Shown here piece after piece: positions 2,201 to 2,814 of a stretch of 5,727 bases of DNA; within the stretch, counting starts at the first letter, position 1; the number at the start of each line of letters is the position of its first letter. The DNA is from a virus. Its lineage: Duplodnaviria; Heunggongvirae; Uroviricota; Caudoviricetes. The position numbers were made by a program, and so were the translations under genes. Location of the stretch: IMG/VR virus record IMGVR_UViG_2547132272_000015. The stretch is one strand, 5' to 3'. The notes under the pieces were generated by a model, which worked only from the letters and a program-made list of their open reading frames with translations, searched no databases and had not been told where the DNA came from.

Positions 2201-2814
2201 AAATTGCTAAAAACTTAAATCTGATTATCCCTGTGCGCACTGAAAAGGGTAATGGCTGGCTCCATGCCACGCCGATCAGCAAAGAGGTGTTTAAAGAGCA
2301 TTTCTTCATCCTGAGTAAAACCTTTTCTGCCATTTTTTCTGAAGGTCTTGGTGTTGTTGCGGGTCCGCGCGTTGCCTGCCTTATGCTGGAGAAAATCTCC
2401 CGTGACTCCGGTTTATGGGATGGGGAGAAAGGCATACGTAATACGCTCATAAACGAAATTATTCGCCTGGCAAACCTTGTTTATCCAGTGGAGGGCAAAG
2501 GCTACGACACAATCCCTCTCGATATGGCGCTGGAGCGTGAAATCGTTGATTTGGACGAAGTGGCGGGTGAACTTGTTTTTTTTACATGCGTCTCGTCGAT
2601 AAATTCCCCGGAGCAGACGAAGGGGACTATGGATGCGGTGAATGGAATATGGAGCACTCAATGCTCGTCCTTGAGTCTTACGGAATGGATCGATTCATTG
2701 CCGACATTGAAGCCTGCCGTCAGTTCTGGCGCGACGGCGAACACGTCATCAGCGACATCCTCGACTACTCAGCCGGAGCCGGATTCAGAGACATCTGTGC
2801 AGATTCCGGTCTGA
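2197..2814 (+). CDS. hypothetical protein, N-terminal part of a frameshift-interrupted gene (tail-assembly-chaperone-like position upstream of the large gene)
   Basis: ORF is coupled to the upstream gene by ATGA. After the T8 run at 2576-2583 this frame reads as low-complexity Ser/Thr-rich sequence with rare codons, while the -1 frame looks coding. Confidence 0.55.
   Translation: MKIAKNLNLIIPVRTEKGNGWLHATPISKEVFKEHFFILSKTFSAIFSEGLGVVAGPRVACLMLEKISRDSGLWDGEKGIRNTLINEIIRLANLVYPVEGKGYDTIPLDMALEREIVDLDEVAGELVFFTCVSSINSPEQTKGTMDAVNGIWSTQCSSLSLTEWIDSLPTLKPAVSSGATANTSSATSSTTQPEPDSETSVQIPV
2576..2583 (+). other. T8 homopolymer, candidate -1 ribosomal frameshift / transcriptional slippage site (T_TTT_TTT)
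   Basis: Codons GTT TTT TTT in the 2197 frame. The -1 frame opens at 2571, just after its last stop at 2568-2570. One extra T would fuse the two ORFs. Confidence 0.5.

Follow-up and report, generated by a model that had tools for sequence, protein, structure and literature searches.

Does the run of eight T's upstream of a tape-measure-like gene break one gene in two, or does it allow one gene to yield two proteins? The question is raised by the 5,727-nucleotide stretch analysed here (virus record IMGVR_UViG_2547132272_000015, called the window throughout), in which a 205-amino acid open reading frame (ORF), the 0 frame, and a second ORF in the -1 frame overlap around the T8 run, immediately upstream of a gene for a 680-amino acid protein. 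An earlier reading, made from the letters of the window and called here the sequence-only reading, had offered as explanations a programmed -1 ribosomal frameshift, transcriptional slippage, a frameshift mutation and a homopolymer sequencing error. The analysis indicates that the run is very probably a programmed -1 ribosomal frameshift site, U_UUU_UUU, in a tail-assembly-chaperone gene of a myophage tail module. The first of the four explanations, a shift of the G/GT type, fits the gene order around the homologs, the way in which the heptamer is kept in phase and the fact that no start codon is conserved in the -1 frame.

The slippery heptamer and its conservation

The 205-amino acid ORF, the opening of the -1 frame directly behind a TGA, the T8 run with a T_TTT_TTT heptamer in the upstream frame and the TAATG overlap with the 680-amino acid gene were all found as the sequence-only reading had described them (coordinates in Table 1). 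Across the run the 0-frame codons are GTT TTT TTT ACA, which places T_TTT_TTT in phase as an X_XXY_YYZ heptamer. From 2571 the -1 frame runs open for 102 codons up to the TAA at 2877-2879, with its first ATG at 2586, and joining 2197-2583 to the -1 segment gives a predicted GT-type product of 227 amino acids (...GELVFF/YMRLVDK...AGVL, the slash marking the junction). A run of eight T's is not by itself a statistical oddity in this DNA and was rejected as such, since 1.46 are expected per window from shuffles and two were observed on both strands. The significance of the site comes instead from its phase, from its position at the opening of a 102-codon -1 ORF, from its recurrence in 72 homologous sequences and from the improbability of two frames being open together. 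A run of eight A's at 2174-2181, also an in-phase heptamer (A_AAA_AAC) and seven codons before the stop of the upstream DUF2213 ORF, was weighed as a further recoding site and discarded, since the -1 frame there meets a stop after four codons.

The site was compared at 93 loci including the window, taken from E. coli genomes, GenBank phages, viral contigs of IMG/VR and metagenome assemblies, which reduced to 72 distinct sequences. The in-phase heptamer is present in all 72, as T8 in 65, T7 in four, TTTTTTC in one and T9 in two, at N-terminal domain identities ranging from 100% down to ~31%. The full layout, that is, an in-phase heptamer, a 0-frame ORF of 189-210 amino acids and a -1 frame of 93-115 codons reaching the tape-measure start, was found in 70 of the 72. 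Where the run is shorter it is exactly the heptamer, reading AGT, TGT or GCT followed by TTT TTT in L077, L090, L091 and L092, and TTTTTTC in L070. Across these homologs the conserved feature is the phase of the heptamer and not the length of the run. The residues that the heptamer encodes, F128 and F129, are two of only five invariant ones, and FF occurs in 42 of 42 distant proteins. A region of 901 bases around the site matches 99 of 5,426 complete E. coli genomes at 80-99.9% identity, as well as two GenBank phages, Escherichia phage Rac-SA53 and Actinobacillus phage pPE4, and the 205-amino acid length of the 0-frame product is kept in nearly all close homologs.

Among ~5.8 billion database proteins, too, nearly all homologs have the 205-amino acid 0-frame form. 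Only four fused proteins of 226-227 amino acids were found (P0001-P0004), and these switch frame at four different positions, as expected of sporadic indel errors. The sequence-only reading had proposed that T9 in homologous loci would mark T8 as an assembly error; T9 turned out to occur in only two copies, both from IMG/VR and both at degenerate or rearranged loci, one without a downstream tape-measure gene (L024) and the other with further frame disruptions (L076), and the assembly error is rejected. A genomic T9 does give exactly the fused 227-amino acid ORF (L024 and P0001). Variants in which T9 or another indel fuses both frames were confined to loci that are rearranged or degenerate and to database entries that are nearly singletons, P0001-P0004 being of the latter kind and P0001 present on 6 contigs; GT-only alleles are possible.

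The wider family was collected by an exhaustive search of metagenome and genome data with the fused relative P0001 as query (E up to 0.001), which gave 626 representative clusters at 50% identity. Most of them are 186-205 amino acids long and align to the query only over residues 1-130, and a few fused-type proteins of 227-263 amino acids can be aligned to the fused query from end to end, with 31-38% identity and with the junction motif VFFY in common. The DNA of 12 distinct distant lineages was then compared, with N-terminal domain identities of 31-46% and one at 67%. All 12 have the in-phase heptamer followed by A, and in all 12 a -1 frame of 93-115 codons terminates at the next gene, either overlapping its start or lying no more than a few nucleotides from it. 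The 0 frame continues for 56-68 codons past the site in these lineages and for 76 in the clade of the window. The -1 frame of homologs opens mostly 1-13 codons before the heptamer, with few exceptions, and seven of the 12 distant lineages have no ATG, GTG or TTG between the upstream -1 stop and 13 codons past the heptamer. ATG 2586 is kept in the close clade and in L079-L082; given the seven lineages that have no start codon, it is a feature of the window clade and its nearer relatives and not a conserved initiation site. Separate starts for the two ORFs, which had been named as a sign of two overlapping genes, are absent from most of the distant lineages.

Coding in both frames of the overlap

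The original frame had been judged to look non-coding downstream of the run, and this judgement did not stand. In an alignment of 42 proteins 33-44% identical to that of the window, one at 83%, W152, S167 and L168 of the 0-frame tail are each present in at least 90% of the sequences, and the C-terminal peptide S-[VIL]-P-[STH] is conserved. The tblastn alignments of 12 cultured phages reach residue 168-173 in the 0 frame, and the position of the 0-frame stop and the tail motifs are kept down to ~33% identity. The AlphaFold2 (AF2) model of the 205-amino acid protein, built on the 42-sequence alignment, has a mean predicted local distance difference test score (pLDDT) of 88. Residues 11-170 score 92-98 per block of ten, and residues 130-170 are at 92-95 or higher. 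In the model a helix of residues 119-135 spans the slip site and is followed by a helix (138-152), a strand (155-157) and a further helix (161-167); residues 171-205 are predicted to be disordered, the tail after 170 being of low complexity. The 0-frame C-terminus of the window, ...VQIPV, is encoded at 2800-2811, and the conserved S-[VIL]-P-[STH] end of the disordered tail looks like a docking motif.

That the -1 frame is genuine coding sequence, as the sequence-only reading had supposed, was borne out. Its protein is conserved among the fused relatives at 31-38% identity with eight invariant residues (Y162, G163, D170, R175, D190, G196, F197 and R215), and it is modelled as a helical domain.

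Substitutions were analyzed in 55 distinct close sequences. Third-position entropy is 1.11 upstream of the site, and in the overlap it is 0.49 for the 0 frame and 0.51 for the -1 frame. The fraction of possible changes that was actually observed is 0.92 for purely synonymous changes upstream; in the overlap it is 0.50 for changes synonymous in the -1 frame only, 0.40 for those synonymous in the 0 frame only and 0.24 for those non-synonymous in both frames. Fisher tests on transitions, made against the class that is non-synonymous in both, gave p = 0.0006 for the -1-only and p = 0.005 for the 0-only synonymous changes. The chance of finding both frames open was estimated by simulations in which synonymous codons were resampled with the protein of one frame held fixed. 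Given the 0-frame protein, the -1 frame is open with a probability of 0.0016 in the window and 0.005-0.04 in seven other divergent lineages; given the -1 protein, the 0 frame is open with a probability of 0.10 in the window and 0.06-0.29 in the seven others. The openness of the 0 frame is weak evidence for any single lineage, yet it is repeated in all eight. As judged from these substitution patterns, purifying selection is acting on both frames of the overlap. The length of the open 0 frame had been called atypical of a chaperone pair; the remark was correct, and the long open frame is the distinctive conserved feature of the family. With ~60-76 dual-coding codons kept from 100% to ~31% identity, the locus would be a clean natural example of a long overlap maintained by frameshift.

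A tail-assembly-chaperone candidate of the G/GT type

The 205-amino acid protein matches phrog_11810 over its full length (E 1.2e-87) and the -1 frame protein matches phrog_14324, a family of 97 positions (E 3.5e-61), both of them families of unknown function. The 680-amino acid protein matches phrog_7694 over its full length (E 3e-296), and its residues 482-630 match phrog_2276, named 'tail length tape measure protein' (E 1.8e-31); the homolog in Rac-SA53 has an SLT domain and holds the tape-measure position. This tape-measure-like protein is the presumed client of the chaperones. Gene order was followed in metagenomic contigs and in Rac-SA53, pPE4, Chronis, PdC23 and the vB_YenM phages. In every complete phage and long contig the tail sheath gene (phrog_205, E 2e-54) comes first and is followed by a tube-sized gene of 146-148 amino acids, the chaperone candidate and the tape measure. 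The protein in the tape-measure position has 556-693 amino acids and an SLT/lysozyme domain, and after it come two small genes, one of them Pam3_gp18-like, and the baseplate hub. All complete-phage and metagenomic homologs of the candidate lie between the tube and the tape-measure genes. The vB_YenM_06.16-1 group, which carries a homolog, has contractile tails by electron microscopy (PMC9224151).

As in G/GT pairs, the two ORFs overlap with a -1 shift and with an X_XXY_YYZ heptamer (T_TTT_TTT, 2577-2583) in the overlap, and the downstream ORF is without a conserved start and ends at or over the tape-measure start. In the G/GT class the GT:G ratio is low and fixed, both proteins bind the tape-measure protein, the T part binds the tube and neither protein is found in the virion. 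The conserved -1 frameshift of tail-assembly genes in long-tailed phages was reportedly described by Xu, Hendrix and Duda in 2004, and according to a review (PMC5009743) a frameshift of this kind in the gene pair before the tape-measure gene is widely conserved there. The position of the slip site departs from this class: in all lineages 56-76 codons separate it from the 0-frame stop, and in lambda and P2 the distance is 6-7 codons.

Searches of Pfam and NCBIfam with the chaperone candidate gave no match, comparison with solved structures gave none either, and hhalign comparison with P2 gpE, Mu gp41 and lambda gpG gave probabilities below 1% each (0.2%, 0.09% and 0.08%, respectively), that is, no detectable sequence similarity. 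Weak fold matches in BFVD are enriched in the names 'tail assembly chaperone' and 'pre-tape-measure frameshift protein G'. The assignment to the G/GT type of tail assembly chaperones follows from two features, the chaperone position and a -1 frameshift leading into an ORF whose stop falls on the tape-measure gene. Most likely the gene would work like a G/GT pair in the chaperone position, its membership of a named family being unproven. GenBank phages, RefSeq and PHROGs list members of the family as 'hypothetical' or of 'unknown function', Pfam and NCBIfam do not contain them, and no annotation of the frameshift product was found in any of these sources. A predicted virion-assembly protein would therefore be missing from the annotation of all these genomes.

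In the proposed mechanism, most ribosomes would read through the run and give the 205-amino acid G-type protein, consisting of a globular domain (~10-170) and a disordered tail with the conserved S-x-P-x end. A minority, their P and A sites occupied by tRNA-Phe paired to UUU UUU, would move back by one base to pair with UUU UUU again and would then read UAC AUG CGU... in the -1 frame. The 227-amino acid GT-type product would have its first 129 residues in common with G, followed by a different, helical C-terminal domain of 98 residues, and its translation would terminate at the ATG with which the tape-measure gene begins. On the model of lambda G/GT and P2 E/E+E', the N-terminal part common to both proteins would attach to the tape-measure protein, and through their alternative C-terminal domains G and GT would have different partners, that of GT probably being the tube protein. 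Since 76 codons separate the slip site from the 0-frame stop and the site falls inside the predicted fold of G, GT would replace rather than merely extend the last part of G. A low GT:G ratio is known for lambda, and modest slippage on U_UUU_UUU would fit it.

The lambda G/GT tail assembly chaperones, reportedly characterized by Levin, Hendrix and Casjens in 1993 and by Xu, Hendrix and Duda in 2004, 2013 and 2014, resemble the window gene in several respects: the gene lies directly upstream of the tape-measure gene, the -1 shift occurs on an X_XXY_YYZ heptamer, the products share their N-terminus, and the downstream frame lacks a separate start codon and overlaps the tape-measure start with its end. 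In lambda 6 codons lie between the site, G_GGA_AAG, and the stop of G, and GT is essentially all of G plus T, whereas the site of the window family lies inside a predicted fold and leads to alternative conserved C-terminal domains. Moreover, lambda is a siphovirus, whereas the family is found in contractile-tail modules. In P2 the myovirus order of sheath (FI), tube (FII), E/E+E' and tape measure (T) is the same, the heptamer is likewise a T-run, and E' ends 8 nucleotides into T. The P2 heptamer, T_TTT_TTG, ends however in G and that of the window in T; it lies 7 codons before the E stop, and E and E+E' have 91 and 142 amino acids against 205 and 227 here. Mu gp41, an annotated tail assembly chaperone, lies between the tube (M) and the tape-measure protein (gp42), and the neighbourhood of the family, with its Pam3_gp18-like protein and baseplate hub, resembles the 'simple baseplate' myophage tails of the Mu/Pam3 type. 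Unlike the window gene, gp41 contains no in-phase classical heptamer in a scan, the only one lying past its stop. The tau/gamma system of E. coli dnaX also has an internal -1 frameshift on a homopolymer-like heptamer and gives products with a common N-terminal part and different C-termini; it differs in that termination comes almost directly after the shift, gamma being a truncation, and in its strong 5' Shine-Dalgarno-like and 3' stem-loop stimulators, which were not found in the window family.

The observation is real and of biological significance. The main mechanism is of a well-known class, and what is new is the unannotated family, the internal slip site with a long dual-coding overlap and the satellite-like carriage. 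The overlap stands in contrast to the paradigm of lambda and P2, where GT is G with an extension. No description of an internal slip site with a long dual-coding overlap was found in the literature searched, a search that was incomplete, so that an earlier mention is possible.

Several points weigh against a programmed ribosomal frameshift at this site. The minimum free energy (MFE) of 2584-2670 is no better than that of shuffles (z = -0.46), giving no sign of a downstream stem-loop or pseudoknot, and RNAalifold on 13 homologs gave a consensus of -2.76 kcal/mol with essentially no covariation and no conserved structure. No upstream Shine-Dalgarno-like stimulator is universally conserved among the lineages. 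U_UUU_UUU is a comparatively weak shifter in E. coli (PMC5009743), and the homopolymer also permits slippage of the RNA polymerase that would give the same protein. The window itself has only the downstream half of the tail synteny, its upstream neighbour being a DUF2213 gene, and since its copy lies on an island and not beside sheath and tube genes, its role there could differ from that in complete phages. Both protein products are predictions from sequence. The anatomy of the locus, its conservation, the purifying selection on both frames and the gene order are established by the comparisons, and the slip, its efficiency and the binding partners are inferred from them. As a separate observation, about one third of the lineages (L050, L077, L083, L084, L088, L091 and L092) have a GAGG-type anti-Shine-Dalgarno match 12-14 nucleotides upstream of the site, of -6.6 to -10.2 kcal/mol and with dnaX-like spacing; it comes from the conserved D/E-E-V/A codons, and the window has GAAGTG instead.

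Transcriptional slippage, in which the RNA polymerase would add one U on the T8 run (template A8) and the U9 mRNA would encode the same 227-amino acid fusion, is an improbable account of the locus. It would suit the pure homopolymer, the 65 of 72 distinct sequences that keep T8 and not the minimal T7, the exact fusion produced by genomic T9 and the failure to find RNA stimulators of ribosomal shifting on the 3' and 5' sides. However, polymerase slippage is phase-independent, and the four T7 lineages and the one with TTTTTTC always keep the X_XXY_YYZ phase; with phase kept and run length variable, the comparative data favour the ribosome over the RNA polymerase. In E. coli and enterobacteria transcriptional slippage usually needs runs of ~9 or more A or T, a length that neither the T8 of the window nor the T7 and T7C runs of five lineages attain. 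The experimentally established site of P2, TTTTTTG, is annotated as a translational frameshift. On T8, slippage of the polymerase could contribute alongside that of the ribosome.

It is very unlikely that the locus consists of two independent overlapping genes, with the 97-amino acid ORF translated separately from ATG 2586, as some phage annotations and phrog_14324 imply. The ATG does exist and is kept in the nearer relatives, and the 97-position family of PHROGs was built from ORFs called in this way, but the seven distant lineages without a start codon have nothing equivalent, reading of the sequence revealed no properly spaced Shine-Dalgarno motif before ATG 2586, and independent initiation would account neither for the invariant in-phase heptamer nor for a -1 frame that opens shortly before it. 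That T8 splits one gene, as a sequencing error for T9 or as a mutation breaking a single 227-amino acid gene, or in a variant that the 0-frame tail is junk, is close to refuted: the rare fused database proteins, the two T9 loci and the low-complexity, predicted disordered tail past residue 170 would agree with it, and it is opposed by the presence of T8 or in-phase T7 in all but two of the 72 distinct sequences, which come from independent genomes, phages and metagenomes, by the four switch points of the fused proteins and the poor state of both T9 loci, by the 0-frame stop and tail motifs conserved to ~33% identity with pLDDT of at least 92 in residues 130-170, and by the enrichment of 0-frame-only synonymous changes over those non-synonymous in both frames.

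The island that carries the window copy

The window does not belong to a complete phage: its location in E. coli ETEC4077 is an island of ~13-14 kb adjoining tRNA-Gly (L001 2273-16000), whose genes encode a tyrosine integrase, AlpA, an AntA-family protein, an Icd-like protein, DUF4222, a D5-type primase-helicase, ProQ/FinO and PerC, followed by two phage head protease/scaffold-like genes (phrog_6216; DUF2213), the chaperone candidate, the 680-amino acid tape-measure-like gene and a terS-like helix-turn-helix (HTH) gene. Domain matches in L001 comprise the integrase (PF00589), AlpA (PF05930, E 2.4e-19) and a D5_N/Pox_D5 primase, and no capsid, portal, sheath or tube gene was found on this island, its virion-type genes being limited to the chaperone candidate, the tape-measure gene and the two head-protease/scaffold-like ones. 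The features of the window, with those of a sister island, are collected in Table 1.

Table 1. Positions of the features discussed, on the window unless another locus is named
Feature	Position	Strand	Remarks
0-frame ORF, G-type tail-assembly-chaperone candidate	2197..2814	+	205 amino acids, frame 1
TGA closing the -1 frame 5' of the site	2568..2570	+	-1 frame opens only 2 codons before the heptamer
T8 run with in-phase heptamer T_TTT_TTT (2577-2583), then A2584	2576..2583	+	encodes F128-F129
-1 frame segment ('T' part)	2583..2879	+	98 codons and TAA; predicted post-slip reading ...VFF/YMRLVDK...AGVL
Dual-coding overlap	2584..2811	+	76 codons, 0 and -1 frames both
AGGAG, likely ribosome-binding site of the 680-amino acid gene	2867-2871	+	
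TAATG, -1 frame stop overlapping the ATG of the tape-measure-like gene	2877..2881	+	read from the sequence
Tape-measure-like protein	2879..4921	+	680 amino acids, C-terminal lytic-transglycosylase/lysozyme-like region
rac55 and rac56 homologs, E. coli 08-00022	L096 9749-11052		rac55 homolog 88 amino acids, 78% identity, Pam3_gp18-like; rac56 homolog 345 amino acids, 72% identity (against Rac-SA53)

Phage-inducible chromosomal islands (PICIs) of Gram-negative bacteria were reportedly described by Fillol-Salom et al. in 2018. The island resembles them in its size of ~13-14 kb, its position beside a tRNA gene, its integrase, AlpA and D5-type primase-helicase and its terminal terS-like/HTH gene (SatelliteFinder, PMC10085698). 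With an integrase, AlpA, a primase, a size in the range of ~10-15 kb and few virion genes, its layout is PICI-like. It differs from PICIs in carrying homologs of helper-type tail-core genes, the chaperone and the tape measure, and no description of a tail-core cassette on PICIs was found in the literature searched on satellites and related phages. The Tai ('tail assembly inhibition') systems of PICIs were considered as a match for this cargo and rejected, the main text that describes them (PMC11364771) being without chaperones, tape-measure proteins or DUF2213.

The junction of DUF2213 with the chaperone gene was found in 15 of 5,426 complete E. coli genomes and also in IMG/VR, in contigs L005-L007 and L049; the last of these keeps the T8 run and both frames intact although its tape-measure protein has only 64% identity. 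In sister islands that share the backbone, the corresponding slot (window 2197-4921) contains homologs of rac55 and of the baseplate hub gene rac56 instead. The occurrence of alternative genes in one slot implies that it holds alternative helper tail-core cassettes, and suggests satellites in which such cassettes are interchangeable, for which a Rac-SA53-type myophage would be the obvious candidate helper. A broader proposal must be considered tentative, and on balance doubtful: that the locus combines an undescribed form of recoding, with the -1 site in a fold, an overlap of 56-76 codons and two conserved C-terminal modules, with a swappable tail-core cassette on a PICI-like satellite. If it is true, satellites may refit the tail core of their helper, a Rac-SA53-type myophage, or disrupt it. 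The chaperone/tape-measure pair on an island with integrase, AlpA and primase, taken with the baseplate-hub cassette of the sister islands, is a testable lead on how satellites might manipulate helper tails.

The ATG of the chaperone gene overlaps the stop of the upstream DUF2213 gene in an ATGA at 2197-2200. The same 4-nucleotide coupling joins the tube and chaperone genes in complete phages (L002 6001-6004), and this common ATGA places the joint of a probable recombination between island and phage exactly at the gene boundary. Upstream of it, the ORFs at 859-1452 and 1517-2200 both match phrog_6216, of 545 positions, in swapped order (405-545 and 115-328, respectively), the second of them being the DUF2213, head-maturation-protease-like ORF. 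They resemble the parts of a head protease/scaffold gene that has been split and rearranged, and may serve capsid redirection. The first of them, 859-1452, bears the RefSeq label 'NUDIX hydrolase', but a Pfam search gave no NUDIX match. At the other end of the window, the 175-amino acid ORF at 4927-5454 has an N-terminal HTH with a weak match to terminase-small-subunit/excisionase families (phrog_57, E 1.6e-07); it stands at the end of both island types, with 84% identity in L096, and is a candidate packaging-redirection protein.

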